A DNA stretch of 32,000 bases from Candidatus Saccharimonadota bacterium (GTDB taxonomy: Bacteria; Patescibacteriota; Gracilibacteria; BD1-5; UBA6164), in contig CP042461.1 of the NCBI GenBank assembly GCA_004563595.2, forward strand, positions 930,001 through 962,000, read 5' to 3'. Of the stretch, positions 3,022 through 23,191 are shown piece after piece (the first letter of the stretch is position 1; each line of letters opens with the position of its first letter). The translations under genes and the position numbers were made by a program. The notes beneath the pieces are model-generated. The model worked only from the letters and a program-made list of their open reading frames with translations, ran no database searches and had not been told where the DNA came from.

Positions 3022-4185
3022 ATGCCTAGTATATTCTATGAAATTTTTAATAAACATATTGATCTCAATGCAAAAGGGCTCAGAAAAATCAAAGGTGCTC
3101 TTGACCAATTATTTAAAGAGTTAGCTGAAAAATCTGATATTGATAACTTAAAAGTTACTAGAAATAGATTAGAAATCCTTCTTCATGAAAAATGAAAAAA
3201 AGCTGATAAAAAAGGAAAAAAGGACTTGAGAGCTTTGTATGTTATTCTTGACGAAATCAATGATTTTATAGAAGAAAAGGAAAAAGTAAAAAAAGATTCT
3301 ATAGAACTTGTGGATGTTGTTAAAAAAGTAGAAAATAAATATAAGGTTTGTAAAAATGTAAAAGAAGAAAAAAGAGGTAAATATATTCAAACTTGTGTAA
3401 AACAAGAAACAATTGATTATGAAAAAGAACTTATACAATTACAAGTTGAGTTGTTAAAACTTCAAAAACATATCAAAGAAAAAGGTGAAAAGCTTCTTAT
3501 CATCTTTGAATGAAGAGATGCAGCTTGAAAATGAGGAACTATTAAAAGATTCAGAGAATATTTAAATCCAAGATGAGCAAGAGTAGTTGCTCTTGAAAAA
3601 CCAACAGATTTAGAAAAATCACAATGGTATTTTCAAAGATATGTAAATCATCTTCCAAGTGGTTGAGAAATGGCATTCTTTGATAGAAGTTGGTATAATA
3701 GAGCATGAGTGGAACCAGTAATGGGATTTGTAAATAAAAATGATTATAATAAATTCCTTACTGATGTCCCATTATTCGAAAAAATGCTTATTGATTCAGG
3801 AACAAAAATAATTAAGTTTTATTTTTCAGTTTCAAAATCAGAACAAGCAAAAAGATTTGATTCAAGAAGAACCAACCCCTTAAAACAATTTAAACTATCT
3901 CCTATTGATCAATTCTCTCAAGAATTATGGTGAAAATATTCACTTGCTGAATATAAAAATTTCTCTACAACTCACTCAAAACATGCTCCATGGACACTTG
4001 TAAAAAGTGATGACAAGAAAAAAGCGAGAGTAAATGCAATTAAATATGTATTAAATCAATTTGATTATGAAGATAAAATTGATAAAAAAGCATTAAAGCT
4101 TGATCCAGAAATAGTTTATGATGGAGAAGAAAAAGTAAGAAGATTATCTGAAGAAATTGATATAAAAAAAGATTTATTTGAATAA
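3022..4185 (+). CDS. ppk2: Polyphosphate kinase 2 family protein with a long N-terminal coiled-coil extension
   Basis: 388 codons. It joins ORFs 3226-3513 and 3709-3933 in one frame. The hallmark is LLIIFE(G)RDAA(G)K(G)GTIKRF...LNPR(G)ARVVAL..P...E....YFQRY...LPSG(G)EMAFFDRSWYNRA(G)VEPVMGF. Three Walker A glycines are encoded by TGA. Stop is TAA at 4183-4185. Confidence 0.9.
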
Positions 4186-4360: not shown

Positions 4361-4990
4361 CTAAAAATTAAATACGTCCACAACTTTCCCGTTCACTCTT
4401 ACATTATCGTCTTCTGACAAGATAATTGGTTTATGGTAGTCGTCATTTGAATCTGGAAGAAGATAGAGAGTTCCTCCATCTTTTTTATATTTTTTAATGG
4501 TAGCAGAATTATTTACTATAAATAGAAATGCATCTTGTTCATTAGGTGTAGATTCTTCTTTTTTTACGAGTATGTAACTTCAGTTATTAATGTTTTTCTC
4601 ATTTACTACAAAATTATTCATAGATGTCCCCTCTATTCTTAAGACAAAATAGTTTGATTCATCTCATGAAATAATATTCTTTGAGATTGGTAAAACTCCA
4701 TAATCACTTTCTGCTGCCTCAACAAGAGGAGTTCAAGCATTCGCATACCCCAGTATAGGGATATTTAGTGTTGTTTGAAATCATACTGAGTTTCAAAGCT
4801 TAATAGATCTAAATCAAAATCACCTGGTTAAAAATCATTTTTTTTCTAGTACTTCAAGGTATTGAGTTACTCCCCTTTTAGATTTTTGATTTAATAGGTT
4901 TTTCAACTCCTCAATTGTTGGAGATTTTCCATATTTTGAGATAAACTCTGTAATAGTATCTAGAACGAATTGTTGTTTTTCTGTAAGCAT
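4361..4990 (-). CDS. lexA: LexA repressor (wHTH plus S24 autopeptidase)
   Basis: 210 codons, ATG at complement 4990-4988, TAG at 4363-4361. MLTEKQQFVLDTITEFISKYGKSPTIEELKNLL...RGVTQYLEVLEKK(G)FL is a LexA-type DNA-binding domain. ANA(G)TPL matches the Ala-Gly self-cleavage site. RIEGTSMN matches the catalytic Ser and ATIKKY the catalytic Lys. Confidence 0.85.
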
Positions 4991-5074: not shown

Positions 5075-5096
5075 TTCTTACTTTGTTCTTACTTTG
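5075..5096 (+). promoter_or_regulatory. Site 1 of the 11-bp-phased direct repeat TTCTTAC-N4-TTCTTAC (candidate OmpR-family response-regulator box)
   Basis: ttcttactttg ttcttactttg is a perfect tandem of an 11-bp unit. It lies about 98 nt upstream of the ATG at 5191 and in the same orientation as that gene. Confidence 0.5.
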
Positions 5097-5190
5097 AATA
5101 TTTAACATATATAGTGTTAAGTATTATTTCTTAAACTTATTAAGGCTATTCTCTGTTATTATTTATTATTTTATATGTAACTATCATATT

Positions 5191-6444
5191 ATGAAAAAAT
5201 TAATATCACTTATATCAGCTCTTGCTCTGATAGTCTCATTTTCTTTTTCAGCTGTTTTTGCTGACCATAACTACTGACACAGTAAAAAAATAGAAAAAAC
5301 TGAGAAAAAAGTAAACAAAGCAAGTAAAAAAGCTTTAAAAGCTCTTGAAAAAAATAAAATAAAAAAATCTGCTAGATGAGAAAGAATTAAAAAGAAACTC
5401 AAAAAAGCTTTAAACAAAAGGTTTAAAAAGCTTGATAAATATTCTGTTGAAAAACAACTTGAAATCTATAACAGATTAAATGAAAGAATTGATCTACTCA
5501 TTGAAAGAAGTGGTGATAATGCTCTTCACTCTGCAGTATTTGAAATATTAAGAGAAATTGTCGATGCTAAAATTGCAGAGTTAACATGAACCTGATCGAT
5601 AGATGAAGATGACATTATAGATGATGTTGTTAATGGTGATGATGAAGATGAAGATGAAGACGAAGATGAGGACGAAGACGAAGACGAAGATGAAGATGAA
5701 GATGAAGGTGAAGGTGAAGGTGAAGATGAAGGTGAAGATGAAGGTGAAGGTGAAGGTGAAGGTGAAGGTGAAGATGAAGATGAAGGTGAAGGTGAAGATG
5801 AAGGTGAAGGTGAAGATGAAGGTGAAACAGAGGCTAGAGAAGCTATAGATGATGCAGCTGAAGAAATAACTAAAGCTGAAGATGCTATAAGCGAAGCCCA
5901 AGAAGACGGAAGAGAAACTGGAGCATCTGAACAATTAGTTGAGGAAGCAAAAGAAGCTCTTGAAGATGCAGAAGCTAAATTCGATGCAGGTGAATTTGAA
6001 GAAGCTGAAGATCTTGCTGATATAGCTGATGATTTAGCAAAAGATGCAAGATTAGAATACCTGTGAGAAACAGTTGAAGAACTTGAGGCAGATAGAGCAG
6101 ATGAAAATTTAGAAACAGAAGCTCAGGAAGCTATAGATAGTGCAACTGAAGAAATAACTGAATCTGAGGAGGCTATAGCAGAAGCTCAAGAAGATGATAG
6201 AGAAACTGGAGCATCTGAACAATTAGTTGAAGAAGCGAAAGAAGCTCTTGAAGATGCACAAACTAAATTTGATGCAGGTGAATTTGAAGAGGCTGAAGAT
6301 CTTGCTGAAGAAGCCCATGATTTAGCAAGAGATGCAAGACTAGAATACCTCTGAGAAACAGTCGAAGAACTTGAAGAAGATAGAACAGAAGATGAAGATG
6401 AAGATACAGGTACGGGAACTACAAGTACATGAACGACTAATTAG
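5191..6444 (+). CDS. Exported, extremely acidic repeat protein (signal peptide, Lys-rich helix, DE/GE low-complexity tract, two 91-aa helical repeats)
   Basis: 418 codons. Signal peptide MKKLISLISALALIVSFSFSAVFA|DH. A 63-codon run of (D/E/G)E follows. The module E..EAID.A.EEIT..E.AI.EAQED.RETGASEQLVEEAKEALEDA..KFDAGEFEEAEDLA..A.DLA.DARLEYL(G)ETVEEL..DR then occurs twice. Stop is TAG at 6442-6444. Confidence 0.8.
5638..5826 (+). repeat. Hexanucleotide (GAAGAT / GAAGGT / GAAGAC) microsatellite-like tract encoding the DE/GE run
   Basis: Read directly as gat gat gaa gat gaa gat gaa gac ... gaa ggt gaa ggt ... for 63 codons. This tract also generates the spurious ORFs 5581-5934(-) and 5621-5848(+) in the ORF track. 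Confidence 0.9.
5824..6384 (+). repeat. Two 273-nt in-frame near-tandem repeats (5824-6096 and 6112-6384) inside the acidic protein gene
   Basis: The two copies align codon for codon with mostly synonymous or conservative differences. Both carry TGA at the same position (LEYL-G-ETVEEL). Confidence 0.85.
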
Positions 6445-6451
6445 TTTCAAT

Positions 6452-6483
6452 AAAAAAAAGATCCCAAGGGATCTTTTTTTGTT
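6452..6483 (+). terminator. Rho-independent terminator
   Basis: The sequence aaaaaaagatccc aa gggatcttttttt has an A-run, a GC-containing stem and a T-run. It starts 8 nt after the stop codon. Confidence 0.7.
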
Positions 6484-6543
6484 TTTCTTTATCATTTCAA
6501 AATTATCTATATAATTAACCTTGTGTTTATAATATACAAGAAT

Positions 6544-7842
6544 ATGCCTTATTCAAATGTCATACAAATAGTAAACAAACTCCACACAATATGAAAACAA
6601 ACATATATTGTAGGGGGCTATTGTCGTGACTCTATCTTGGAATTACAACTTGATTGAGATATAGATTTAGCTACCAATGCTCTTCCTGAAGAAATTGAAG
6701 ATAGTCTCAAAACCATTGCACATATCGGAAAAAAATATGGAACATCCATTATAAACGAATGAAACGAGTATTATGAAATCACTACTTTTAGAAAAGATAT
6801 ATGATCAATAAATAATAGAAAACCTGCTGAAGTAGAATTTACTGACAAATTAGAAGAAGATGCAAAAAGAAGAGACTTTACTATGAATGCAATCTATTAT
6901 AACCCAATAAAAAGTGAATACATTGACCCAACTTGAGGTATCAAAGACTTAGAAAATTGAATTATTCGATTCATCTGAAACAAAGAAGATAGAATAGACG
7001 AAGATGCTCTGAGAATCCTCAGATATATTAGATTTAAAAATAAATATAACCTAGAAGCCGCAAAGAATACATACACAGATACATTAAAACGTAAGATACA
7101 TTTATTGCAAAATATATCGATAGAAAGAATCAAAGATGAGCTAGATAAAATACTGCTACTAGAAAATAATATCCAAGCCTTAAAAGATTTAAAAGAAATA
7201 TGATTTTTTACATTATTTTTAACTGAAATTGAAGCTCTAGAAAATACCCCTGGGTCTAAATATCACCAAGAATGAAATGTATGGATTCATACACTTATGA
7301 CTCTCAAGTATTTAAATTGACTGAGAAAAAAATCAAAGAAAGATGCTAGTTATTTTCTAGACCTATACTGGGCTATGTTATTTCATGATATAGCAAAAAC
7401 TGAGTGTCTGAGTACAGATTCTGATTGAAATGTTCATTACTATGGTCATGAAAACTCTGGCTCAGAAATATTCAGATCAAAAATTGCACAAGAATTGAGA
7501 TTCTCTACATCATCAAAAAATAGAATATCTTGGATAATAGAAAATCACCTCAAAGTATTCAAGGTCATGGAAATGAAAAAACTAAAAAGTAGAAAGCTAA
7601 TGATGCATAAGTACTTCACAGATCTCATGATTATTTGAGAATCTGATCATATGTGAAGGATTCCTGCAACAATAGATGTTGTTGATAGATTAAAAGAGTT
7701 TTACTCTGATTTTCAAGAAATACTCTCAAAAAAAACTTTTTTTACTGGAAAAGATATCATGAAGAAGTATCCTCACCTTCAATGAATTGCTATATGAAAT
7801 AAACTCAGAGAAGAAAATGATAAAATATTAATATCGGATTAA
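6544..7842 (+). CDS. cca: CCA-adding enzyme / tRNA nucleotidyltransferase (PolyA-pol head plus HD domain)
   Basis: 433 codons. Conserved motifs are YIVGGYCRDSIL....D(G)DIDLAT, KRRDFTMNAIYY, DP.(G)GI.DL.N(G)IIRFI(G)...RI.EDALRILRYIRF and an HD region LFHDIAK...HYYGHE. There are many in-frame TGA codons. Stop is TAA at 7840-7842. Confidence 0.85.
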
Positions 7843-7852
7843 AATTCAAAAG

Positions 7853-7870
7853 CTCTTACATTATTCTTAC
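7853..7870 (+). promoter_or_regulatory. Site 2 of the YTCTTAC-N4-TTCTTAC direct repeat, upstream of the response-regulator gene (candidate autoregulation)
   Basis: The sequence ctcttac atta ttcttac has 11-bp phasing. It ends 45 nt upstream of the ATG at 7916, and a tataat hexamer lies at 7893-7898. Confidence 0.5.
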
Positions 7871-7915
7871 ATAAGTTATTTACTATTACTACTATAATAA
7901 TTAATAATCCTATAT

Positions 7916-8572
7916 ATGAAAATACTCATCGTAGAAGATAATGAAATTCTCTCTCAGAATATTGCCACATATTTGAAATTAGAAAATATTCAATCAAAGC
8001 AGTTATTTGAGTGAGGACAAGTAAATTATGAACTTACCATGAATAATTATGATTTGGTTATTCTTGATTTATGACTCCCTGATATAGACTGACTTGATAT
8101 ATGTAAAAAGATAAGAGGTAGTGAAAAAAATATACCTATACTTATGCTCACAGCAAGAAACACTACACAAGATAAAATATCAGGATTTCAGTCTGGATCA
8201 GATGATTATTTAACAAAACCATTTGATTATGAGGAATTACTCATGAGAATACATGCTCTCATAAGAAGAAATTTTACAGTGAAAAGTAATAAAATAAATA
8301 TATGAGATATAGAATTAAATATTGCTGATAAAAAAGTCTCTCTACAATGAGAAGAGGTACATCTCAGTAATTTAGAAATTGACTTGATCATATATCTCGT
8401 TCAAAATAAATGAAAAGTAATATCAAAAGAGGAGTTATTAGAAAAAGTATGGTGAGAATATGATGCTTATAGTATGAGTAGAACTGTTGACGTATACATA
8501 TGATATCTCAGAAAAAAACTTGGAAAAGATTTAATAGAAACTATCAGAGGTCAATGATACCTTATTCGTTAA
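7916..8572 (+). CDS. OmpR/PhoB-family response regulator (receiver plus winged-helix)
   Basis: 219 codons. MKILIVEDNE...LVILDL(G)LPDID(G)L...PILMLTA....D...G...G.DDYLTKPF matches a receiver domain. The C-terminus ...LS..E.DL..YL..N.(G)KV.SKEELL.KVW(G)....S..RTVDVYI(G)YLRKKL matches a trans_reg_C winged helix. By hand count about 10 of 16 Gly codons are TGA. Confidence 0.9.
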
Positions 8573-8586
8573 AATTTCATACGAGA

Positions 8587-9774
8587 ATGGAAAATTATAG
8601 ATTATTAGAAAAACATAGAAAAAAACTCAGTATATATTTTGCATTATTTATACTCTTTTCACTTTGGATCACTGAAGGAATCTTCTTGTTATCAAATTAT
8701 GTTACTCACAATATTGAATTAGAGGGCAAACTTGAAACAAGAATAGTCTGAGTAAAAAATATTATCTCAAATAAATGAGAATATTTACAAAAAATTGAAT
8801 CAAATGATTATACTATTAAAGTAATTCTTGAAAAAACCCTCGATTGAGTAACCATTATTGAGAATTGAGATCGAATCTTAGGTAATATTAATCATGAAAT
8901 TTTTATAGATCAAGGAGAAATACTCAATAGTACTCAATATAAATTTTATCAAGAAAATTTTATACTCAACTGAAATGATTATACTGTTATTATTCAATCT
9001 TTTAATGAGTATTCATACTATAAACTCGGAAAAGAATATTGATATTTTATAATATTTTCCCTTCCCTTCATGATATTTTTCTATTTCATTTGATACATAT
9101 TTGTTTGAAAGAACTTTCGACCAATAAAAGAAACTATTTCATCTCTTGAGACTTTTAGTGCAAATATTAATCATGAAATGAAAACTCCACTTGCTGAAAT
9201 CATTTCAACACTGAGTTTAGCAAAGAAATTAAAAGGAAATTATGATGAAGCAATTAACCAAAGCTTAAAATCATCAAAGAAATTAAATAAGATACTTGAT
9301 TCAATGTTATGAATCATTAACTTAGTCGATTCATCATATAAACAGGAGAAAATTGACTTAGTGTCTGAACTGAAAGAAATTATCAAAGAAAACAAAACCA
9401 AAGCTGAGAAAAAAAATATAAAAATAAAAACTGATTTTATGAATAAGTCGTATACTATTCATATCAATAAAGAACATTATCACATATGTGTTTGAAATAT
9501 TCTCAAAAATGCCATTAAGTATTCACATGATAATTCTAAAATAAAGATAAAATTTGAGGATTGAAAAATAGAGGTTACTGACTTTGGAGTTTGAATAGAA
9601 GAGAAAAATTTAAAAAATATTTTTAACAGATATTTTAGAGAGGACTACATTAAAGAAGAATGATCATGACTTTGACTCGCTCTGGTTAAAAAGATAGTTG
9701 ATATGCACTTATGGAAAATAGAAATAGAGAGTAAAAAAGATAAATGAACAAAAGTAACATTAACTATTGTGTAA
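8587..9774 (+). CDS. Sensor histidine kinase (two TM segments flanking a ~115-aa extracytoplasmic domain; HisKA plus HATPase_c)
   Basis: 396 codons, starting 14 nt after the response-regulator stop. H-box NINHEMKTPLAEI, N-box NILKNAIKYS, G1 VTDF(G)V(G)I, G2 E(G)S(G)L(G)LALVKKIV. The G2 glycines are encoded by TGA. Confidence 0.9.
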
Positions 9775-9802
9775 AATTTAAAACTCTAATTTTAAAAAAT
9801 TA

Positions 9803-10252
9803 ATGAAAAATATAATATATATTATCCCCTTACTATTCCTTTTTTGATGTTCATATATTAATGAGGAGCAAGTTATTCAAAGTAAGAGCCCAGAAACAAA
9901 TATAGATTCATTTTTATGACTCACAGATACAGATTCTGATAATATAAAAGATATTAATCTAGTAGATACCAGTACATGAAAAGCTTGAACAGAAATACCA
10001 AAAAGAACGAGTCCGGATGATATCAAGGACAATACTGATTTAAATGAAATATGAGATGATACATCAGAAGAAAAAAAAGAAACCCCTGATACTCAAATAG
10101 TTGAAACCGAACTTGTCAAAATAGAAAATATAGAAATTGAAGTAGATGATACTTTAGTTCAAGAAACTGATGAAGAAGCAACTATCATTGAAGAATTTAC
10201 AGATGAAGACATAGAAGAATTAATTGATATTTTATTTGAGACATCAAGTTAA
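9803..10252 (+). CDS. Small acidic lipoprotein
   Basis: 150 codons. MKNIIYIIPLLFLF(G)CSY contains the lipobox LF-G-C, and its Gly is a TGA codon. The mature part is strongly acidic (DTDSD, EEFTDEDIEELIDILFE). It starts 28 nt after the kinase stop. Confidence 0.7.
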
Positions 10253-10297
10253 ACCAATCTATTATATAAACAAAATACTTCCAATAATTATAAAATC

Positions 10298-11095
10298 ATG
10301 AAAATAACTACTTTACAGAAATATCTGATAACAATAACATATGCAATACTTATGTTGTTATTTGTGGGGCTAAATTTAAATATTGCATCAGCTGAAGAGA
10401 CTTCTACTCCTCTAAGAGATGCTCAATTACTAGAAGGAGAACAACTCACAGATGAAGAAAGAGCGAGAAGAAGAGCGAGAAGAGAAGCAAGATTGCTCGA
10501 ATGAGAAAGGCTTACTGACGAAGAAAGAAGAACAAGAAGAGTTCAAAGAGAAGAGCAAGCTGATGATACTAGAGCAATACAAGTAGATGACACTAACATA
10601 AAACCAAGAATAAGTGAAAGCGAAAGAACAAGATTAAAAGCACTTGCAAGAGAAAAGAGAATGGGAGAAATTATACCGGCACGTAAAGAAAGAATGCAAA
10701 TAAGACGAGATGAAATACATATCAAATTTGAAGAAACAAAAAATGAAATCCTTGATAAAGTGAAAAAATGAGAAATAACAAGAAAAGCTGCTAGAAAACT
10801 TATTTTCCAAGCAAAAGAAGATATTATTGTAAACGCAAAAGTGAAAATTCAACAAGAAAAAAAGCAAATACAACAAGAAAATCTCAGTAGATTAAAAAAC
10901 ATAATTCAAATAAAATTGGATTCGAAGCTCTCAAAACTTAATACTCTATCAATTACCAATCAAAATAGCGTGTACCAAAAATTGATTGATAAAATAAATT
11001 CAAAATTAGATTTATGAACTTTATCAAAAAAGAAAAATATTCTTATGAATATAATCAAAGACATACTCCTAGCCAAAAAAAGTACTCTGAATTAA
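10298..11095 (+). CDS. Exported Arg/Glu/Lys-rich coiled-coil protein with a tandem 22-aa LLEGE.LTDEER repeat
   Basis: 266 codons. Signal peptide MKITTLQKYLITITYAILMLLFVGLNLNIASA|EE. The remainder is almost entirely charged and helical. The standard-code ORF 10298-10504 stops at a TGA that continues in frame. Confidence 0.7.
10427..10558 (+). repeat. Tandem 66-nt in-frame repeat (10427-10492 and 10493-10558) encoding LLEGEQLTDEERARRRARREAR / LLEGERLTDEERRTRRVQREEQ
   Basis: The Gly of LLEGE is GGA (10436-10438) in copy 1 and TGA (10502-10504) in copy 2. This is internal evidence that GGA and UGA are synonymous here. Confidence 0.8.
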
Positions 11096-11112
11096 TTCAG
11101 AGTACTTTTTTT
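11075..11112 (+). terminator. Rho-independent terminator overlapping the end of the 10298-11095 CDS
   Basis: The sequence aaaaaaagtactctgaa ttaa ttcagagtacttttttt forms a 17-bp stem including the A/T runs. Confidence 0.7.
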
Positions 11113-11117
11113 ATTAT

Positions 11118-11135
11118 TTCTTACATTTTTCTTAC
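11118..11135 (+). promoter_or_regulatory. Site 3 of the TTCTTAC-N4-TTCTTAC direct repeat
   Basis: The sequence ttcttac attt ttcttac lies immediately after the terminator. A tataat hexamer is at 11146-11151, and the ATG at 11284 is about 148 nt downstream. Confidence 0.5.
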
Positions 11136-11283
11136 ATACTCTATATATAATAAAGCTATCCTCAAAAACAGAGGTTCAAGAATATTTATAGAATAGTTTA
11201 CACATAACAATAAGAAACTACACTTCTATACAGTTCCTCTTGAATATTAATACTTATATTTATTTATATAAAAATATTATACT

Positions 11284-12132
11284 ATGAAAACCATAAAAAA
11301 TACAGCATTACTTGTAACACTACTAACATTTTTATTTACAAGCATTGCAGTAAGCGCAGATGAAACTAATACAGATTCTACAAACCCTTGAGCTATGTAC
11401 TCAGTAAAACTAGCTAAGGATGCTCTCAAAGCTGAAAGAGAAAGAATACAAGCAGAAAGAGCAGAATTTAAAGCTGAAAAAGAAGCAAGAAACCAAGAAA
11501 TGAAAGACAATAGAGCAAAATTTAAAGAAGCTCATAAATGAGAAATGAAAGAAGCATTTTCTGGATTGTCTGATGATACAAAAGTTGAATTAAAAGAATT
11601 AAAGAATGATTTTAAAGCAATATCAGCTGATCTACACAACGATTTAAAAGATAAAGATCTTAGCTTAGAAGAAAGAGAAGAATTAAAAGATTCACTTGCT
11701 GATTTAAGTAATACTTATAATGAAGCAGTAAATGAACTTGTTGCAGGAAATGCTGAAGCTTCTGCATTCTTAGCAGAAAGAAAAGCATTAAAAGATGAAA
11801 ATAAAGCATTAAGAGATGAAGCAAGAGCAGATAGAAAAGAAACAAGAGAGCAATTACAAATTACAAACCATGAATTAATTGACCAATACAAAGAAAAATA
11901 TCTTAATCAACTTGCAGTAGTTATTCCAAAAGTTTCTGATGCAAAATTAGAAAAAATTAGTAATAAAGTAAGTGAAATGATAGAAAAAATTGAAGAAAGT
12001 ACAACACTTTCAGATTCAAAAAAAGAAAAAATCCTTTCTCAAATTATTTCAATTCAAGAAATAATGGAAGAAGAATTAGAATCTAGAGCTGAAGCAATTG
12101 AAGAAATTGATTTAGATGATATAGACTCATAA
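11284..12132 (+). CDS. Exported charged coiled-coil protein
   Basis: 283 codons. Signal peptide MKTIKNTALLVTLLTFLFTSIAVSA|DE. It extends ORF 11545-12132 upstream across two in-frame TGA codons. The sequence is helical and rich in K, E and D, for example LSLEEREELKDSLADL. Confidence 0.75.
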
Positions 12133-12150
12133 ACAAAAAACTTATTTTTA

Positions 12151-12191
12151 AAAAACGAGAAATGATCCTCCTTATCATTCCTCGTTTTTTT
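12151..12191 (+). terminator. Rho-independent terminator
   Basis: Stem aacgagaaatgat / atcattcctcgtt (13 bp, 1 mismatch), a 7-nt loop, then a T-run. Confidence 0.7.
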
Positions 12192-12443
12192 GTTGTAAAT
12201 AATATATTGAAATATTATAAAATAAATATATACTTTATATATACTTATTTCATATACTCCTCGCTATGAAATTTAAAACATCAAATAAACTCCCACTATA
12301 AGAATCATAAGATCTGATACGGAATTGACCTCCTTCATTTATGAAAAGCAACAAAGTATAAAATAAGAGAGTAGTATAATTTTATTGAAAAATAATTAAA
12401 ATAAATTATACTCTGAGTATATTAATTTATTAAAAATAACACT

Positions 12444-12689
12444 ATGTGAAGAGATTTTTGGCAAGAACAAGATAATTGAGATGATGGCGATGTAATAGTT
12501 GTAACAGATGCAAATGGAAATGTATTACATGATGGTGATAGTGTGGCTGCAACAAAAGATATAAAAGTAAAAGGTGCTTCTGATATCAAAAGGTGAGATA
12601 AATTTAAAAATATCAGACTCACTGATGATGAAGACCTTATAGAATCAGGAAAAATGGTATTGAGAACTGAGTTTTTCAAGAAGATATAA
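12444..12689 (+). CDS. PhnA/YjdM C-terminal-domain protein (stand-alone, no Zn-ribbon)
   Basis: 82 codons. M(G)RDFWQEQDN(G)[38 protein letters not shown](G)[30 protein letters not shown] matches the PhnA C-terminal pattern D.NGN.L.DGDSV...KDLKVKG.S..K.G..V.NIRL......I......LK.EF.KK. An in-frame TAA lies 7 codons upstream of the ATG. Confidence 0.75.
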
Positions 12690-12721
12690 AAAAAAGAACG
12701 GAAATTTCCGTTCTTTTTTTT
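12688..12721. terminator. Bidirectional rho-independent terminator between convergent genes
   Basis: The sequence aaaaaaaagaacggaaa / tttccgttctttttttt is a perfect palindrome with flanking A and T runs. Confidence 0.75.
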
Positions 12722-12724
12722 ATA

Positions 12725-13828
12725 TTACTGATTATATATTTCAACGTCATTAATATTTCAATAAAATTGATTTAAAAATATATTTAAGTTCTTAAATTCA
12801 TTACGTTTTATTTCTTTAAATTGTTTTTTATCCCAAGCTTGACGTTCGGTATGCATCGATATATATTCAAACATATTTTGAAAAGTTTGATGTATTTGTT
12901 TTTTCTTCTCTATGATTCTTTGAGACTTTGGTTGCTTTTGACTCAGGTTTATGATTTTCTTTTTTTGAGATTTCAGGTCACTTTGAAAAAGGGCTATTTG
13001 TTTTTGAATTTGTGAAATTTTTTCTTCAGAAAAGTTATATTTTAATACTGGATCTATTTTTCACATAAATCACTTAAAGTTTAATTTTACTGTTTCATAA
13101 CGATTAAAAACAACTTTCGTACCATAAATATATCTATGTCATTTATCTCAATAGATATACACTCTTCATTCTAAAAGTGATCATTTATCAGGTCACCAGA
13201 GAGTATCAAAATCTCATGTGATTTTGATTTTTTTTCATATAAAATCGAAATCAAAATTCGTTTTCATACGACCATATACATACAAAGTTCCTTTTACTTT
13301 TGAATATGGTCACATAATCATATTTCAAGAAATTTTTGATTTTCATCAAAGAGTTAATTCTGATCACGAGGTAAAATCTCATGTAACATAAGCTCAATTT
13401 ACTATAGTGACTGATCATTTTGTCAGTAGGTTTCAAAGCGCAATAACTCTATCTACTCTTAATGATGATCAAGTAGTAATATTTTTTCATTTCAAAGTTC
13501 CTTGTATATATATTTGATTTCAAATTTGAATATTTCAAATTACTACAAGATGTCATAATACTTTTAAAGAGCTTCCTGCTACTAAATTCCCATATACAAT
13601 CAAATTTCAATCTACTGTTACATTGTTCACAAGCTCTAAGTTTCAAGTCACCACAAAAGTTTTACTCTTTATTTTTCAAGGAGAATATATTATAGTCACT
13701 CAGGTCTGAGTCTCTAAGCTTGTAATTGTATCAGCTACTTGCAATTGAGTATTATCAGCTAATCACACATGAGGATTAAAGATCCATAGAAGAGACAATA
13801 CAAATAATATAGTTCATTTTTTATACAT
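12725..13828 (-). CDS. Beta-helix (bactofilin-like, Gly-periodic) repeat protein with an N-terminal signal/anchor and a C-terminal coiled coil
   Basis: 368 codons. I checked every triplet and found no in-frame TAA or TAG. N-terminus MYKK(G)TILFVLSLLWIFNPHV(G)LA|DN. The core is VT(G)NLELVNNVTVD(G)NLIVYGNLVAGSSLKVL(G)HLVVI(G)NIQI(G)NQIYIQGTLK(G)KNITT(G)SSL..., with Gly every 5-7 residues. By hand count about 30 Gly codons are TGA and 6 are GGN. Confidence 0.7.
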
Positions 13829-13903
13829 AATATTTTTTAATGATATGAATTTATATATATTATATATAAAAAATATTGAAAGTCATCTTGTTTTTGAAGA
13901 GAA

Positions 13904-14755
13904 TTACAAATTCACAAATAATAAACCTATAAATCAAACAATAATCAAAAGCCATTGATACCAATGTAATTTTTCATTAAAAATAAAATATGAAGATATA
14001 CTCAGAAGAATAGGAACCAGAGATAAGAATAAAATTGAAACTGATATATCTCAGAGTACCGTTGAATAGAAAAACATCGAAGTTGCTAAAGCTGGAGCAA
14101 ATGATGATATAAAAATATTTCAGAACACTTTTTTGTCTAAAATGATATTTTTCCTTAAAGACTTAAATAACAAAATAAATGTAGATAAGATCAAAAATAT
14201 ACTTAATTCTGATAAAAATACTCATGTAAATATATCTAATTCCCTACTTAAATATGCAAATCCGAACCCCCAAAAGGCTCATCATAACATTCAAATAAAT
14301 GCTAATAGTATTCATAAATACCATCTTGTATCTAAATGACTATGGTTTGATTTAAAACATCATAATAAGATTCAAGAAAATATAAGCAATAATGCACCAA
14401 TATATCAATATAAAGTGAGTTGTTCAGAGTATAAGAAATACGATAACACTATTACTACAATACTCTCCAAAGAAATAATTGAGCTTACAATTCCAGCTGG
14501 TAAAAATTGATAAGCTTTCAAATGTGATAAAAAATATATCACTCAACAAAATCAAAACAACACAGATAGCCCCAAATAATGCAACGAAAAATGAGAAAAA
14601 TTAGCAAAAAACAATAATCATGACATGATTATTGTTAATGATACAGTTCTGTAAAAATTTACTAAAAATGTTCCCTGCTGTCTTATATGTTTTGCAAATA
14701 ATAAATTACTTGCTACATATGAAATAACAGAGATTATGATTACAAGATAATACAT
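13904..14755 (-). CDS. EamA/DMT-family transporter
   Basis: 284 codons. I checked every triplet and found no TAA or TAG. The protein is very hydrophobic with about 10 predicted TM segments in two halves, for example ...AKHIRQQGTFLVNFYR... and ...FFYSTVL(G)DISVSILFLSLVPILLSISSYFIFNEKLHWYQWLLIIV(G)FIGLLFVNL. This layout is typical of the EamA duplication. Confidence 0.75.
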
Positions 14756-14770
14756 TTTTATTTTATATTT

Positions 14771-15850
14771 CTAATATTTTAAAGTTATTGTTTTTTTATC
14801 ATCGGGTCAGATTTCTTCTTTTTCTAAATATAATTCCATTAATTCTCATTCATCATTATATTCCCCTCTCGAAAATCCATTTTCATAAAACCATCTTGAT
14901 GAATTTAACTGAGTTTTTGTTGAAATTGGCAACCCATTTTTATTAGTGAATTCTATAGTATCACAAGAATCTAACCTTTTTATGGCTCAGAATGTTGTAG
15001 TAACTCCATTTATTACAAGCTCTCATAAATTTTTCGCTCGTCTAAATCCTGTTCCTCTGTGATATTTCTGTATCGTTTTATTTCCTCATTTTAAATGCTT
15101 TAAAGATAGTACAGGTAAATATAATATAGTCTTTAAATCTCAATTTTCATCATACTCAAAAAGTATTTTATCAGATCACATTCATAGCTTTGTTTGTTCT
15201 ATTATTTCTGGTTTATTAATACTATTATATGTAATTGATAATTTATTATCTACTTCAAGATCTCTAGATAGACGCATATTAGTAACTAATCCATTTTCTC
15301 TTTCAAATGAAATTTCTTGATCTACTCCAAATCAACCTCACTCTAAATCTAAATTAGTGGGTCTTTCAAACAATATGTTATCTATTTCGTTACCTTTTCC
15401 ATAATTAAAATTTAATTTCGTTTCATTTGCTGGCAAAAATCCATCTCATGTTATTGCTTTTATTCTCCTTCATTTAACTCAATTTCCTTCTATATCTTCA
15501 TAAGAAAAATCATACTCATAATCTTGTGCCCAGTTCCGATCTAGATTCATTTTTTTAGGAGTTTTCAATGAAGTGATCGTATTTTTTCCGTTAATAACCT
15601 CAACTAAAGAATAAATAGCCATGAGTTCTTCTTCTCATAATTCTACTTCTCAATCAAACAACTCATCTAAATCTCTATTTTCTGGCAATCTCGCTAAGGT
15701 AGTTAAATATGTCAGATATAAAATGGTTTCTTGGTCATGTTTTATCTCCAGATCTATTTCTCAAGTTTCTTTTTGTGTAGAGGCTTTTATTGATTTTCTA
15801 TTAGTATCTGTATTTCATGTTTCAAATGAAGGACCATTAGGTAATCACAT
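14771..15850 (-). CDS. Hypothetical cytoplasmic protein (possible YD/MORN-like short repeats)
   Basis: 360 codons. I checked every triplet and found no TAA or TAG. ATG at complement 15850-15848 is preceded by an in-frame TAA. There is no signal peptide. Motifs such as FEYDEN(G)DLKTILY and WFYENGFSRGEYNDE(G)ELMELY recur. Its stop lies 15 nt before the EamA start. Confidence 0.65.
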
Positions 15851-15946
15851 GATGAATTAATTTATGAATAAAATATATTAATAGCTTAACATAAAATTAA
15901 ACATTTAGCAAAATACTACAATAATATACACAATGATATTTCATTA

Positions 15947-17110
15947 TTATTTCACAGGAGTTCATTTAAAGCATCATACCATATAGGGGTAGTTTGCAGT
16001 TGCATGGTAATGATATATTTTTTTATCCGTTCCATCCCATGAGATTGTATGTGAATGCCCATGACATTCGTCTAAGTCATCATTTGTAAGATTTTTTCCA
16101 TCTTCCTGGTTTCAGTAGATACCAAATCCATCAAGAGCATATCATACCAGCTTTGCGCTTCCATTAGTTGTGTCTTCTACAGAGTCTTCTAAACATGATC
16201 AAATATTATGATAATGATAGACTCCATCTCTCTCAGGATGCCCTTCACAGTTGTCTTGTATTTCATGAGCTACAGCATCTCTTCATACTGCATCTAGTCC
16301 ATTAAAAAGCGCAACTCATGTTGTTGAGATTCAAATGGTTCACATTCAGACACAACTTGCAGATCAAGCAATTTTAGGATTTGCAGGAAGAGAGTAATAT
16401 ATTTTATAATCATCAATAGAATTCGGATTTCTATCATAGTTATAGGCATCATCATTCCTACTTACTGGAAATACTCAAGTATTATGATCCTCAGGTACTC
16501 AATTTCATGATATTACTCTTTTATCTCACTGAAGAGTAAATGAAATCTCTCCATCCCAACTTACATTTCCATCAACATGAACTGTTTTTTTACTTGGGTA
16601 CCAATAGTTTCCATCTATCCAATCCCCATCTTTCCAAGCTCCCCCTCATCCAAACCTTGTTACACAAGAATATATATATCATATTTTTGGGCTTGAGCTT
16701 ATTTTTCCATCTCAGAGTTCATATTTTTCAATTGTATCAGGAGTTGTATCTGGAACATATTTTTGAGTTATCGATTGATTATTTCAGTCTTCATTTACAA
16801 CATCTCTTAATGCATGCAAAAGAGAAAATATTTTCAATCTTTTTCTATCATCTATATTTCTATCATTTTCATATTTACTTATCAGTTCGTCTATTTTTGT
16901 AACTAAAATCTGTAATTTTGTATCAGATAAAGACTCAATCTTAGAAGAATATTTATTCTTGAGGAGTACTTTGTAGATACTTTTTGAACTTAAAAAATTA
17001 CTATTCGTTTTATAGTCTCATTTTGCTGGCAATGCCATAACAGCAGACGATAATACCCCTATAACAATAGATATTATTACTCATGTAATCAGGTATTTTT
17101 TTGTACTCAT
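15947..17110 (-). CDS. YHYH-domain protein with an N-terminal membrane anchor/signal
   Basis: 388 codons. N-terminus MSTKKYLIT(G)VIISIVIGVLSSAVMA. The C-terminal region N(G)VPEDHNT(G)VFP...NPNSI...T(G)VALFNGLDAV(G)RDAVAHEIQDNCEGHPERDGVYHYHNI(G)SC...LV(G)YALDGFGIY(G)...LDECHGHSH...YHYHATANYPYMV(G)CFK(G) carries the signature of the YHYH family. Confidence 0.85.
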
Positions 17111-17160
17111 AAGTAAAGTTTTAGAAATATAATACTTATTTGTCATAATATAGAAGTAAG

Positions 17161-17178
17161 GTAAGAATAAGGTAAGGA
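17161..17178 (-). promoter_or_regulatory. Site 4 of the YCCTTAC/TTCTTAC 11-bp direct repeat, upstream of the YHYH operon
   Basis: The minus strand reads tccttac ctta ttcttac. The proximal repeat ends 50 nt upstream of the YHYH ATG (17110), in the same orientation relative to its gene as sites 1-3. Confidence 0.45.
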
Positions 17179-17196
17179 ATTAAAATAATTATATAA

Positions 17197-17223
17197 TTGA
17201 CTTGTGGTTTTATTAGGTATAAT
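17197..17223 (+). promoter_or_regulatory. Near-consensus sigma70-type promoter (TTGACT-15 nt-TATAAT)
   Basis: ttgact at 17197-17202 and tataat at 17218-17223, about 34 nt upstream of the ATG at 17257. Confidence 0.45.
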
Positions 17224-17256
17224 ATTTATACTTTCAAACAAAGTAGGGTGAGTATA

Positions 17257-17622
17257 ATGAATAAATATGATGGATTACTTGAATACTCTGGTTTCCACAA
17301 TATATCATCTCATTGTAGAATTCGGATCTATAAAGTTAACAATAAATCCATAGTTATTCTATCTGAGATGGAAAACACTGGAACTTCAATTACTAATGTA
17401 ATAGAAAAAATTGTACCTTTGCTAATTAAGAACTATGATATTCCATATGAACAACTTACTTTAGTTGAACATTACCCAATTGATATGGGAATAGTAGCTG
17501 ATAGGGACACTTTTCAATTTGTTACTTTTAGCCAGGAAAATAATTGTTATGCTAATCCCGGTTGGGACGATGTAAATAAAAAGGAGCTTGAGGAACTTAT
17601 TGGCGAAAAATTAGATGATTAA
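17257..17622 (+). CDS. Hypothetical 121-aa protein; UGA-free, SD-led ORF
   Basis: ATG at 17257 is preceded by gggtgag at a 6-nt spacing. The ORF has 121 codons plus TAA. All six Gly codons are GGN (gga, ggt, gga, gga, ggt, ggc) and there is no TGA. It has its own promoter and terminator. I recognise no family (MNKYDGLLEYSGFHNISSHCRIRIYKVNNKSIVILSEMENTGTSITNVIEKIV...). Confidence 0.6.
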   Translation: MNKYDGLLEYSGFHNISSHCRIRIYKVNNKSIVILSEMENTGTSITNVIEKIVPLLIKNYDIPYEQLTLVEHYPIDMGIVADRDTFQFVTFSQENNCYANPGWDDVNKKELEELIGEKLDD

Positions 17623-17772: not shown

Positions 17773-20055
17773 TTATTTCATAATCAAATGTAGATCTTTT
17801 TTAGGTTTTTCCCATTTTTCAACTTTTAAATCCTTATGTACAAAGATCATAAAATCTCTCATGATTGGTCATGCTCAGGTAATTCAATATGCTTTTCAAG
17901 TAAGCTCTTCTCAAGAGGTATTTCAAGCCCAAACGACAGTAGTAATTTGTGGGGTGTATCAAACCGTCCATAAATCTCTTGGAACAATGATATCTTCTTC
18001 ATCTTCTGGATTTTCTTTATATTGTTTACTTGATGTTCCGGTTTTTGATGCCATTTGCCTTCATGGAATTGTTAAAAAATGATTCCAAGATTTTGGTCTA
18101 TCTTCTCCATTTGATAATATGGAATTAATTTTGTAACTATATTTTTCATCTAAAATTCTTGCTCATTGCTTACTTGTTTCAATACTTTCAAGTATCTTTC
18201 AATTTGAATCCACAACCTTTAATAAAGACTTTACTTCATTTTTAACTCAAGAATTAGCAAAGACAGAATATGCTTTAGCTAATTCAAGTGGAGTTATTTG
18301 CACTGTTCATAAAGCCATAGGTGCTGCATATACATAGTTGTATCAGTATTTCTTTTTAAAATCTTTTTTAAAGTCTACTAAGCTCTTTATTCAAAAAGGT
18401 AATAAAAATTTTATTATTTTTTCCTCTTCCCCTGCTGCATAATATGCTTTCACAGCTGGAATATTTCTAGAATGATTTAAGGCTTCAGATAAGGTTATTT
18501 TTCACATATATTTTCCATCAGAGTTTTCTGGTATGTAGTCTCAAGGAAAAGTAAACTTTTTATCTCTAAAGATAGTATTTTTTGTAAAACCATGCTGTAT
18601 CATAGCTAACATATAAACAAAAGGCTTAAAAGTACTTCCAGGTTGCAGTCTTGCAAAAATCATATTGTTATAACCAAGATTCGTTTCATCAAAGTAATCT
18701 ACTCATCAAACCATTGATAATATTTCACCGGTTTTATTATCTAAACTTATGAGGGCTGCATTTTTTGCTCAAAATTTTCCTGTATTTATAACTACTTGTT
18801 GTTCTATTAACTCTTGAGCTTTATCTTGAAGCTTTGAATCGATAGTTGTGTATATTTTAAATCCTCATTCTTGTATCAATTTCTCTCAATACTTTTGTAC
18901 TAAGTAATCCTTAACATACATTACAAAATGAGGAGATTTTATATCATCTGAATATTCTTTGAATTCAAATCAAAAAGATCATATAAGTGATTTTTTATAC
19001 TGATCAAAACTAATATAACCGTCCTCGAGCATCCTTCATAAAACATAATCTTTTCTTCATGTCTTATACTCTACATAAAACTTGTCATTTTTTATAGATA
19101 TAGAATTTAAAAATAATAATAATTTATTTATTTTTAAATTTGTACATCAATCTGCAGCTATATAAAAATGACTCTGCTTGATATTTTTTTTATCTATTCA
19201 ACATATTTTTAGAGAATCTCATTTATGATCAGCACTGAGATTATTTATAAAATTTATAAGTACCTCTACTTGAGTCTTATTATTCTCTAAATTTTCTTTT
19301 GATAATATCTTTGTTGTATCTATTTTGTCAGATATCTGTATGAGAAATGGATATCCTAATAATTTATCCCTTTTATGATATGGGGATAATCACGTTGGCG
19401 CTTTTGGTAAAGAAGCTAAAATACTTGATTCTAATACTCATAATTCTGATGCTGCTGTTCAAAAAAATGTTTGAGAGGCTTGTTCAATTCCATACGAATT
19501 TCATCAAAAAAATATTTTATTCAGATAGAGTTCTAAAATATCTTTTTTCTCAAAAATAGAATCTAACTCAATGGATAAATATAATTCTTTTACTTTTCTT
19601 TCTATTGTTCTTTCATCTGTTAGGTATGTTACTTTTGCTAGTTGCTGAGTTATTCATGAAGTTCAAGCAAATTTTGTCCTATGGATTACTCCATTAAAAA
19701 TGGCTCTCAAAATACCTATTCCATCGTATCCAGGGTGTTTCCAAAACCTCTTATCTTCTCATGCTATGATTGCATGAATCATATTTATATTTATATCTTC
19801 ATAATCAACGTAGGTTCTTTTTTCGGAATATATTTTATATAATTCTACTCAATTTCTATCATAAATAACTGAAGATTCATGCATCGGGATAGTTTTGTAT
19901 GCTTTTACATCAGGAAATGGTCATATGCTCTTTAAATATGATAAAAATAGGAATAAACATATAAGTGATAAAATAAGAAAACATAATAAAAGAACTATAA
20001 GCTTAAATATTATATTTTTTTTATCTATGAAGCATTTCTTATTCTGTTTTAACAT
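17773..20055 (-). CDS. Class A penicillin-binding protein (GT51 transglycosylase plus transpeptidase)
   Basis: 761 codons with an N-terminal TM segment. GT51 motifs are A(G)EDKRFWKHPGYD, A(G)TS(G)ITQQLAK, RKVKELYLSIELD and LELYLNKIFF(G)(G)NSYGIE. Transpeptidase motifs are QPGSTFKPF (SxxK), HSRN (SxN) and SKTGTS (KTG). A 7-T run at about 19505-19512 must be read correctly to keep the frame. Confidence 0.92.
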
Positions 20056-23072: not shown

Positions 23073-23124
23073 AATAAAAACGGCTATAAATAGCCGTTTT
23101 TATATTCAATATTTTAATGGAGGT
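23073..23124. repeat. Direct repeat copy B (tRNA-Cys terminator plus spacer plus the last 7 nt of tRNA-Cys)
   Basis: The sequence is aataaaaacggctataaatagccgtttttatattcaatattttaatggaggt. The hairpin stems are conserved relative to copy A and the loop differs. Confidence 0.75.
23076..23101 (-). terminator. Terminator downstream of tRNA-Cys
   Basis: The palindromic sequence aaaaacggcta taaa tagccgttttt lies 17 nt past the tRNA 3' end. Confidence 0.65.
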
Positions 23125-23191
23125 GCCAAGCGGGTTCGAACCGCTGTATACGGTGTTGCAGACCGCTGTATAACCACTCTACCATGGCACC
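23118..23191 (-). tRNA. tRNA-Cys (anticodon GCA), CCA encoded
   Basis: The minus strand reads GGTGCCA TG GTAG AGTGGTT A TAC A GCGGT CTGCAAC ACCGT ATAC AGCGG TTCGAAC CCGCT TGGCACC T CCA. It has a 7-bp acceptor stem, a D-arm with a G13:A22 mismatch (typical of tRNA-Cys), an anticodon loop CU-GCA-AC, a T-loop TTCGAAC and discriminator U73. Confidence 0.9.

Follow-up and report, generated by a model that had tools for sequence, protein, structure and literature searches.

A conserved phased direct repeat as the putative operator of an OmpR/PhoB-family two-component system in Gracilibacteria

An 18-bp box, composed of two direct repeats one helical turn apart, precedes four transcription units in a 32-kb stretch (the window) of the genome of Candidatus Gracilibacteria bacterium 28_42_T64. 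The box is very likely the operator of the OmpR/PhoB-family response regulator (RR) encoded next to one of its copies (7916-8572), which would act as an activator that replaces the -35 contact of RNA polymerase. From sequence we infer the binding itself, the identity of the binder and the direction of control. Transcriptional control is almost undescribed in bacteria belonging to the candidate phyla radiation, which have not yet been grown alone. The 28_42_T64 genome paper says only that several two-component systems (TCSs) are retained (PMC6851277). No description of this system or of its motif was found in the literature searched.

The window was searched with YYCTTACNNNNTTCTTAC (YYCTTAC-N4-TTCTTAC), which returned exactly four sites (Table 1). 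None of 100 dinucleotide-preserving shuffles of the window contained a single phased pair (0 expected). All four sites are intergenic and have the same orientation as the next gene. The lone heptamer is not enriched in the window (9 copies found, 7.7 expected), and six of the nine copies lie within the four pairs. Among all heptamers phased at 11 bp, TTCTTAC ranked first with four pairs, every other heptamer giving at most two. It paired at period 11 only, save for a single period-20 pair. After the four sites, the best phased pair is one with two mismatches inside a coding region, at 18156. An earlier note on this DNA, made from the letters alone, had listed the same four phased pairs, had described them as intergenic and co-oriented with the downstream gene, and had seen no further phased pair; all of this was borne out. 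The distances it gave, 45 nt from the end of site 2 to the RR start and 50 nt from site 4 to the gene of the YHYH-domain protein, were also confirmed, the latter given a start at ATG 17110. This start was chosen because the predicted -10 element overlaps the upstream ATG 17146; in addition, the 387-aa form is called in the close relative L081.

Orthologous loci were collected from Gracilibacteria (L001, L002, L083-L089), and further contigs (L159, L202, L207, L189, L210, L211) came from a metagenome consensus scan and from searches with target homologues. Most of the 120 loci of the consensus scan were chance matches in unrelated taxa, and about six were informative Gracilibacteria contigs. 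A search of genome contigs with the RR gave two Gracilibacteria loci and 78 distant OmpR-family loci, the latter serving as negative control. L081 and L082 are near-identical to the window and carry no evolutionary information. Many RR orthologues are present in Gracilibacteria (50-96% identity). The synteny of RR, sensor histidine kinase (HK), lipoprotein (Lp) and the exported proteins X and Y is conserved. In ten Gracilibacteria loci (200,464 bp, 87% coding, RR identity 54-100%), 16 pairs with at most one mismatch were found where 0.2 would be expected, each of them intergenic. The next gene runs in the direction of the pair in 15 cases; in the remaining one the pair points to a Y gene that is cut by the contig end. 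Scoring with a position weight matrix (PWM) at a threshold of at least 20 bits gave 16 matches in the 200 kb of Gracilibacteria loci and no match in the 1.30 Mb of sequence that surrounds OmpR-family regulators from other phyla.

A strong box was found before the RR gene in six of twelve lineages (window, L001, L002, L083, L084 and L089/L202), and a weaker box of the same geometry in three others (L085, L088 and L210). In the window, L089/L202 and L088 it stands at the same -45 distance from the RR gene. The box precedes all twelve Y orthologues, including the one in L207, where no TCS lies within 8 kb, and it precedes X in five lineages. Three phased heptamers are located upstream of the L210 orthologue of the YHYH gene (60% identity), where the following gene encodes a sulfatase and not EamA. 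In L159 the box is also found before a gene for a 470-aa exported protein and before lexA. The earlier note had proposed an OmpR/PhoB-type phased operator, by which the TCS at 7916-9774 would regulate itself and control exported charged proteins and the YHYH operon, and had named conservation at orthologous promoters as a check; the label it attached, an envelope, cation or metal stress regulon, is a guess. Such conservation, seen before RR orthologues, all Y orthologues, X and the L210 YHYH gene, supports the proposal, as do the absence of the box from the 1.3 Mb of control loci and a rigid, Pho-box-like spacing to the -10 element.

This spacing became apparent in an ungapped alignment of 27 non-redundant sites from lineages of 20-38% GC. 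The box consensus is TTCTTACA-wwt-yTCTTACA, two 8-bp units one helical turn apart. Fourteen box positions are identical in at least 23 of the 27 sites, and the flanks of the box are unconserved. Downstream of the box, T at +29 and A at +30 are present in every site and T at +34 in 26. The motif TAnnnT is found exactly 10 nt past the box in 26 of the 27 sites and in at most 10 at any other offset; the L210 and L211 sites show the same geometry. At 16-18 nt upstream of the -10 element, these 27 sites have no conserved -35 (TTGACA) hexamer, and the CTTACA cores lie at spacers of about 20-21 and 9-10 nt from the -10. By sequence, a fixed -10 element and a missing -35 element mark a putative activator-dependent sigma-70-type promoter. 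The invariant 10-nt spacing and the missing -35 speak for an activator in place of the -35 contact. The E. coli Pho box has the same layout: in this 18-bp box a 3-bp A/T linker joins two tandem 8-bp repeats, a TAN3T -10 element follows at a distance of 10 bp, and the box replaces the -35 (PMC1906773).

The box overlaps the region in which RNA polymerase normally contacts the -35, and the RR might bind it and repress by promoter occlusion. OmpR-family regulators can repress from such positions, an example being the dual role of M. tuberculosis PhoP (PMC11825685). We regard repression as quite improbable. With no -35-like hexamer 16-18 nt upstream of the -10, the promoters are expected to be weak without a helper. 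The invariant 10-nt spacing is expected of a polymerase contact that depends on the face of the helix, whereas a simple roadblock would tolerate variable spacing.

The RR is 100% identical to P0001 of Candidatus Gracilibacteria bacterium 28_42_T64. It contains a receiver domain (Response_reg, PF00072, E = 2e-26) and a winged-helix domain (Trans_reg_C, PF00486, E = 3e-23) and aligns full-length to the DrrD and BasR structures. Twelve RR orthologues (50-100% identity) all share the receiver residues D8, D51, T79 and K101, and their recognition helix, SRTVDVYIGYLRKKL, hardly varies, which matches the conserved box. The HK has HisKA and HATPase_c domains and two hydrophobic membrane segments, predicted by eye, around a loop of ~130 aa; no PAS domain match was found in it. 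The pairing of the RR with a HisKA-type kinase is kept in all loci retrieved. No NCBIfam equivalog cutoff is reached by the RR (PmrA 184, PhoB 182 and MtrA 182 bits, against cutoffs of 296-330). Its receiver, winged helix and cognate kinase place the RR in the OmpR/PhoB family, and by the tests applied it falls outside the PhoB, PmrA and BceR families. The 7-4-7 direct repeat fits the documented binding mode of OmpR-family regulators: M. tuberculosis PhoP binds as a cooperative tandem dimer to 7-bp direct repeats with a 4-bp spacer (PMC4832192), and C. difficile RR_1586 uses 11-bp units (PMC6222199).

We propose that the membrane kinase senses an extracellular signal, possibly together with Lp, and phosphorylates the RR at Asp51. 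The RR would bind the two repeats head-to-tail as a tandem dimer. With the box at approximately -40 to -23, the bound RR would stand in for the -35 contact and recruit RNA polymerase, as PhoB does at Pho boxes. Transcription would then begin near 5115, 7893 and 11158 (+) and 17138 (-), about 7 nt past the predicted -10 elements. The units switched on in this way would be its own RR-HK-Lp-X operon (positive autoregulation), Y, the acidic exported protein with the X-type module, and the YHYH operon.

Several points weigh against activation of these units by the adjacent RR. The count of sites in the source genome was confined to the window, where some heptamer reached four pairs in 2 of 100 Markov randomisations; the look-elsewhere-corrected significance of the window alone is ~0.02. 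The PWM was trained on the same loci that it scored, which makes the weak sites partly circular; the mismatch-count and negative-control results are independent of the PWM. No box was detected before the RR gene in L086, L087 and L159, so autoregulation is not universal. Every -10 element and start site is a predicted one. Finally, a second, paralogous-looking type of TCS is present in L088 and L210; its recognition helix is near-identical, and it could read the box alone or jointly with the RR. The window by itself is only moderately significant, suggestive and not conclusive. It is the comparative data that make the case decisive.

The second TCS type leads to a distinctly unlikely alternative, in which the box is a real operator read by another OmpR-family regulator, for example the L088/L210-type paralogue, or by both regulators. 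In L210 a strong triple box precedes the YHYH gene, and the sole TCS on this 16.8-kb contig is L088-like, lacks Lp-X-Y and has the recognition helix SKTIDVYVGYLRKKL. The several two-component systems mentioned for 28_42_T64 (PMC6851277) also speak for another reader. The boxes that precede the genes of L088-type regulators themselves are all weak. Against another reader, strong boxes stand directly before the RR gene of the Lp-X-Y type in six lineages, and before the co-travelling X and Y in all of these. As the recognition helices of both TCS types are near-identical, both are expected to read the same site.

In principle, the box might be no regulator site but an alternative-sigma promoter element, a remnant of promoter duplication among paralogues, or a product of AT-rich chance. 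Three of the four window targets (the acidic protein, X in the RR operon, and Y) share the X/Y module, and gene duplication could have carried some boxes along. The window has a GC content of 27.9% (72% A+T), and the randomisations that reached four copies also speak for chance. The RR and YHYH genes, however, carry the box though they are no X/Y paralogues, and the flanks are unconserved while the box is conserved and without a match in the control DNA. We know of no sigma-70-family geometry that fits spacings of ~9-10 and ~20-21 nt between repeat and -10, nor of a sigma element that is a tandem repeat. The alternative-sigma and chance readings were rejected on the excess of pairs (16 vs 0.2), the null result in control DNA and the geometry, and are largely refuted. 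An origin of the box other than as a regulator site is thus very improbable.

PhoB of E. coli shares more with the RR than the layout of its box, being an OmpR/PhoB-family regulator with a neighbouring kinase. PhoB autoregulates phoBR. The repeats differ, with TTCTTACA here and CTGTCATA in the Pho box. The RR scores 182.4 bits with the PhoB equivalog TIGR02154 (cutoff 296.2) and 165.7 with the Bacteroidetes PhoB model (cutoff 270). The HK scores 117.5 bits with phoR_proteo (cutoff 334), only the catalytic core being aligned, and it has the ~130-aa loop between membrane segments and no PAS match, unlike PhoR. No pst, phoA/D/X or phoU gene adjoins any box in the ~250 kb examined. Identity with PhoBR was considered: the geometry suggested it, PPK2 and YjdM/PhnA-like genes are close by, and PnpS gave a full-length match, though a weak one. 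It was rejected, with scores far below the cutoffs and no phosphate-uptake targets. By its geometry the box appears to work like a Pho box, which falls short of making it one.

PmrA is the best NCBIfam match of the RR and BasR its second-best PDB match (PmrA/BasR of Enterobacteria, 4s04 and 8jo2), but with the PmrA equivalog NF007928 the RR scores 183.7 bits, far short of the cutoff of 330. At the -35 region, PmrA recognises the direct repeat CTTAAT-N5-CTTAAT, and a CTTA core and 11-bp period are common to both boxes. The half-site described here ends in ACA, that of PmrA in AAT. We know of no lipid-A or lipopolysaccharide modification targets in this organism. The PhoP boxes of B. subtilis consist of TT(A/T/C)ACA repeated at an 11-bp period; cTTACA agrees with this repeat at five of six positions. 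The regulon content of B. subtilis and M. tuberculosis PhoP differs from that seen here, and with every equivalog score below its cutoff, orthology to them is not established.

An identical half-site TTCTTACA was found between the kinase and ABC (ATP-binding cassette) transporter genes of Bce-like RR-HK-ABC modules of Firmicutes, on gut-metagenome contigs L100, L174 and L095. There, a third, inverted copy comes after the direct repeat (TTCTTACA-aaaa-TGTAAGAA), and the repeat faces away from the transporter genes, whereas the Gracilibacteria sites are pure direct repeats with no inverted copy and no adjacent BceAB-type transporter. The HK has a large loop, and none of the Gracilibacteria loci has an ABC transporter beside the TCS; the system is not of the BceRS-BceAB type. 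The arrangement TTCTTACAnAGTTCTTACA-aaaa-TGTAAGAA was located at L100 3457-3475, L174 1142-1160 and L095 257-275. In a Clostridia-type RR-HK operon the same direct repeat lies 70-90 nt upstream of the RR gene and faces away from it (L101 3565-3583, L133 3941-3959, L172 2353-2371); L133 and L172 have an extra TCTTAC copy ~27 nt further upstream. The occurrence of one half-site beside OmpR-type TCS operons in unrelated Firmicutes contigs fits TCTTACA as a winged-helix half-site of more than one subfamily. A likeness of organisation only is seen with saePQRS of S. aureus, an autoregulated OmpR-family TCS operon that includes a small lipoprotein and controls secreted proteins via direct-repeat sites. 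Its gene order differs from that described here, and the accessory proteins are unrelated in sequence.

The gene map depends on the genetic code. Under table 11 the open reading frames (ORFs) of the window were fragmented and hardly any were long, and a dense gene map emerged when TGA was read as sense. The window is read with genetic code 25, in which TGA encodes glycine, and all window genes were re-called accordingly. In the called genes 58% of the glycine codons are TGA (357 TGA vs 259 GGN). Among the 31 called genes, 26 end in TAA and four in TAG, and the remaining one exits the window edge. In the alignment to the DrrD and BasR structures, TGA falls at invariant glycines of the RR (LDL-G-LPDID-G, RGQ-G-Y), and it is also found at the G2 box of the kinase. 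Table-11 output is misleading for this window, and, TGA being a sense codon, the ORF list made with it is of no use; the gene calls of the earlier note are correct, and only so under code 25. The features around the boxes are compiled in Table 1.

Table 1. Features around the four boxes of the window, in order of position
Feature	Position	Strand	Remarks
lexA	4361-4990	-	divergent from box 1
Box 1, TTCTTACtttgTTCTTAC	5075-5092	+	PWM 21.4 bits; in the divergent lexA/acidic-protein intergenic region, faces the acidic exported protein
Predicted -10, TAACAT	5103-5108	+	exactly 10 nt past box 1
Exported poly-acidic protein, 417 aa	5191-6444	+	apparently monocistronic; signal peptide; D/E/G repeats; terminator follows
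Intrinsic terminator of the acidic-protein unit	6453-6480	+	
CCA-adding enzyme gene	between the acidic-protein terminator and box 2		
Box 2, CTCTTACattaTTCTTAC	7853-7870	+	PWM 24.5 bits; putative autoregulatory site
Predicted -10, TACTAT	7881-7886	+	10 nt past box 2
OmpR/PhoB-family response regulator (RR), 218 aa	7916-8572	+	8 in-frame TGA = Gly
Sensor histidine kinase (HK), 395 aa	8587-9774	+	starts 14 nt past the RR stop
Small acidic lipoprotein (Lp)	9803-10252	+	lipobox LFLFGC; conserved C-terminal motif EEDIEELIDILFETS
Exported charged helical protein X, 265 aa	10298-11095	+	in this genome, the RR-HK-Lp-X operon ends with this gene
Intrinsic terminator, 17-bp stem	11075-11112	+	ends the RR-HK-Lp-X operon; directly before box 3
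Box 3, TTCTTACatttTTCTTAC	11118-11135	+	PWM 28.0 bits; perfect pair; putative gene Y promoter box
Predicted -10, TATAAT	11146-11151	+	10 nt past box 3
Small hairpin, CCTC-N7-GAGG	11160-11174	+	where the Y transcript is predicted to begin
Exported all-helical protein Y, 282 aa	11284-12132	+	X paralogue; core conserved target
EamA/DMT transporter	13904-14755	-	15-nt gap after the 359-aa hypothetical
Hypothetical protein, 359 aa	14771-15850	-	96-nt gap after the YHYH gene
Exported YHYH-domain protein, 387 aa	15947-17110	-	PF14240, E = 3e-20; first gene of the box-4 unit
Predicted -10, TATTAT	17145-17150	-	10 nt past box 4
Box 4, TCCTTACcttaTTCTTAC	17161-17178	-	PWM 20.4 bits

The exported proteins of these units are related. 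X and Y are paralogous (hhalign 98%, E = 2e-13), and the acidic protein carries the X C-terminal module (hhalign to the X family 87%, E = 4e-6). Given this homology, a single family of exported, helical proteins, whose highly charged regions vary, is encoded in three of the four window units. The acidic protein has its X-type module at residues 61-129 and, besides, two DUF4398-like repeats (DUF4398, E = 3e-7). Coding tandem repeats of periods 12 and 18 (GAAGGTG...) at 5600-5850 of the window encode its D/E/G-rich stretch, and X/Y orthologues elsewhere have other charged repeats at the equivalent place, such as QDQDRTQDQDRLQDCTGDCD in three copies (L002) or REDR in four (L086). Y has no Pfam or PDB sequence match, and a word-indexed search gave only five Y homologues. 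The AlphaFold model of P0241, a 50%-identical homologue of Y, is all-helical with a pLDDT (predicted local distance difference test) score of 74; it found no Foldseek match better than E = 0.75.

When the Y leaders were folded as single sequences, seven of twelve (window, L001, L083, L084, L085, L089 and L211) had a hairpin right where the Y mRNA is predicted to begin. Its consensus is aACCU-N4-AGGUu, with only -3 to -6 kcal/mol. One stem position occurs with three pair types, U-A, G-C (L083) and C-G (window). RNAalifold on the ungapped Y leaders gave no consensus structure because loop lengths differ among them. The hairpin may be a 5'-end stabiliser.

Lp is always encoded directly after the kinase gene and is very variable save for the C-terminal motif (T)EEDI(E/D)ELIDILFE(T), which is present in all lineages as EEDIxELIDILFE; by its position and conserved motif Lp may be an accessory partner of the kinase. 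For the C-terminal two-thirds of the YHYH protein, the closest relatives have 55-60% identity and include named Alphaproteobacteria, Chloroflexota, Anaerolineae and Acidobacteria, most matches being without a source name. One full-length Gracilibacteria-like homologue was found and no more. This distribution suggests that the YHYH gene was acquired horizontally and then recruited into the regulon.

No terminator was found in the gaps between the YHYH, 359-aa hypothetical and EamA genes. Judged by these short gaps, the latter two are probably co-transcribed with YHYH, and the same transcript possibly includes a gene for a bactofilin-like exported protein (12725-13828, -); TGA, read as Gly, makes up 30 of its 367 codons. 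The EamA and bactofilin-like genes are separated by 75 nt that contain a sigma-70-like promoter match, and the latter gene may be a unit apart from the YHYH operon. A YjdM/PhnA-like gene (81 aa, 12444-12689, +) lies between Y and the bactofilin-like gene and is seen only under code 25; the table-11 list shows an antisense ORF in its place. Divergent from box 4, a small gene without TGA codons (17197-17622, +) has possible starts 18-78 nt from the box, which is upstream of them, and the regulator could affect this gene too. In L159, lexA is directly preceded by a perfect box (5855-5873), N10 and TATAAT, and in L086 lexA (13686-14315) lies directly downstream of Y. In three lineages the TCS is syntenic with the genes for aspartyl-tRNA synthetase (AspRS), PPK2 and lexA; PPK2 (3022-4185 in the window) is without a box. 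The sole RNA gene found in the window with Rfam is a tRNA-Cys (GCA) at 23118-23191 (-).

The mechanism itself is not of a new kind. PhoB-style activation that replaces the -35 probably operates in this recoded lineage. The motif is usable for regulon annotation in Gracilibacteria metagenome bins, and the X/Y family, Lp and the YHYH protein are flagged as putative co-regulated surface components. A kinase, a regulator, an 18-bp operator of fixed promoter geometry and a small regulon of lineage-specific secreted proteins would make up the first testable, sequence-defined circuit for Gracilibacteria, with no need for culture. As a speculation to which we give a small chance, the RR-HK-Lp system and the box-driven X and Y may form a Gracilibacteria-specific circuit for surface remodelling or host contact, in which the kinase and Lp sense a cue at the cell surface. 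Examples of such a cue would be contact with a host cell, or cations or phosphate being lost from the wall. In response, the regulator would deploy secreted proteins that are highly charged and often poly-acidic, which could serve as protein-based anionic surface polymers or attachment factors in an organism that is unable to make the usual envelope polymers, and the box before lexA in L159 would tie the DNA-damage regulator to the surface signal.

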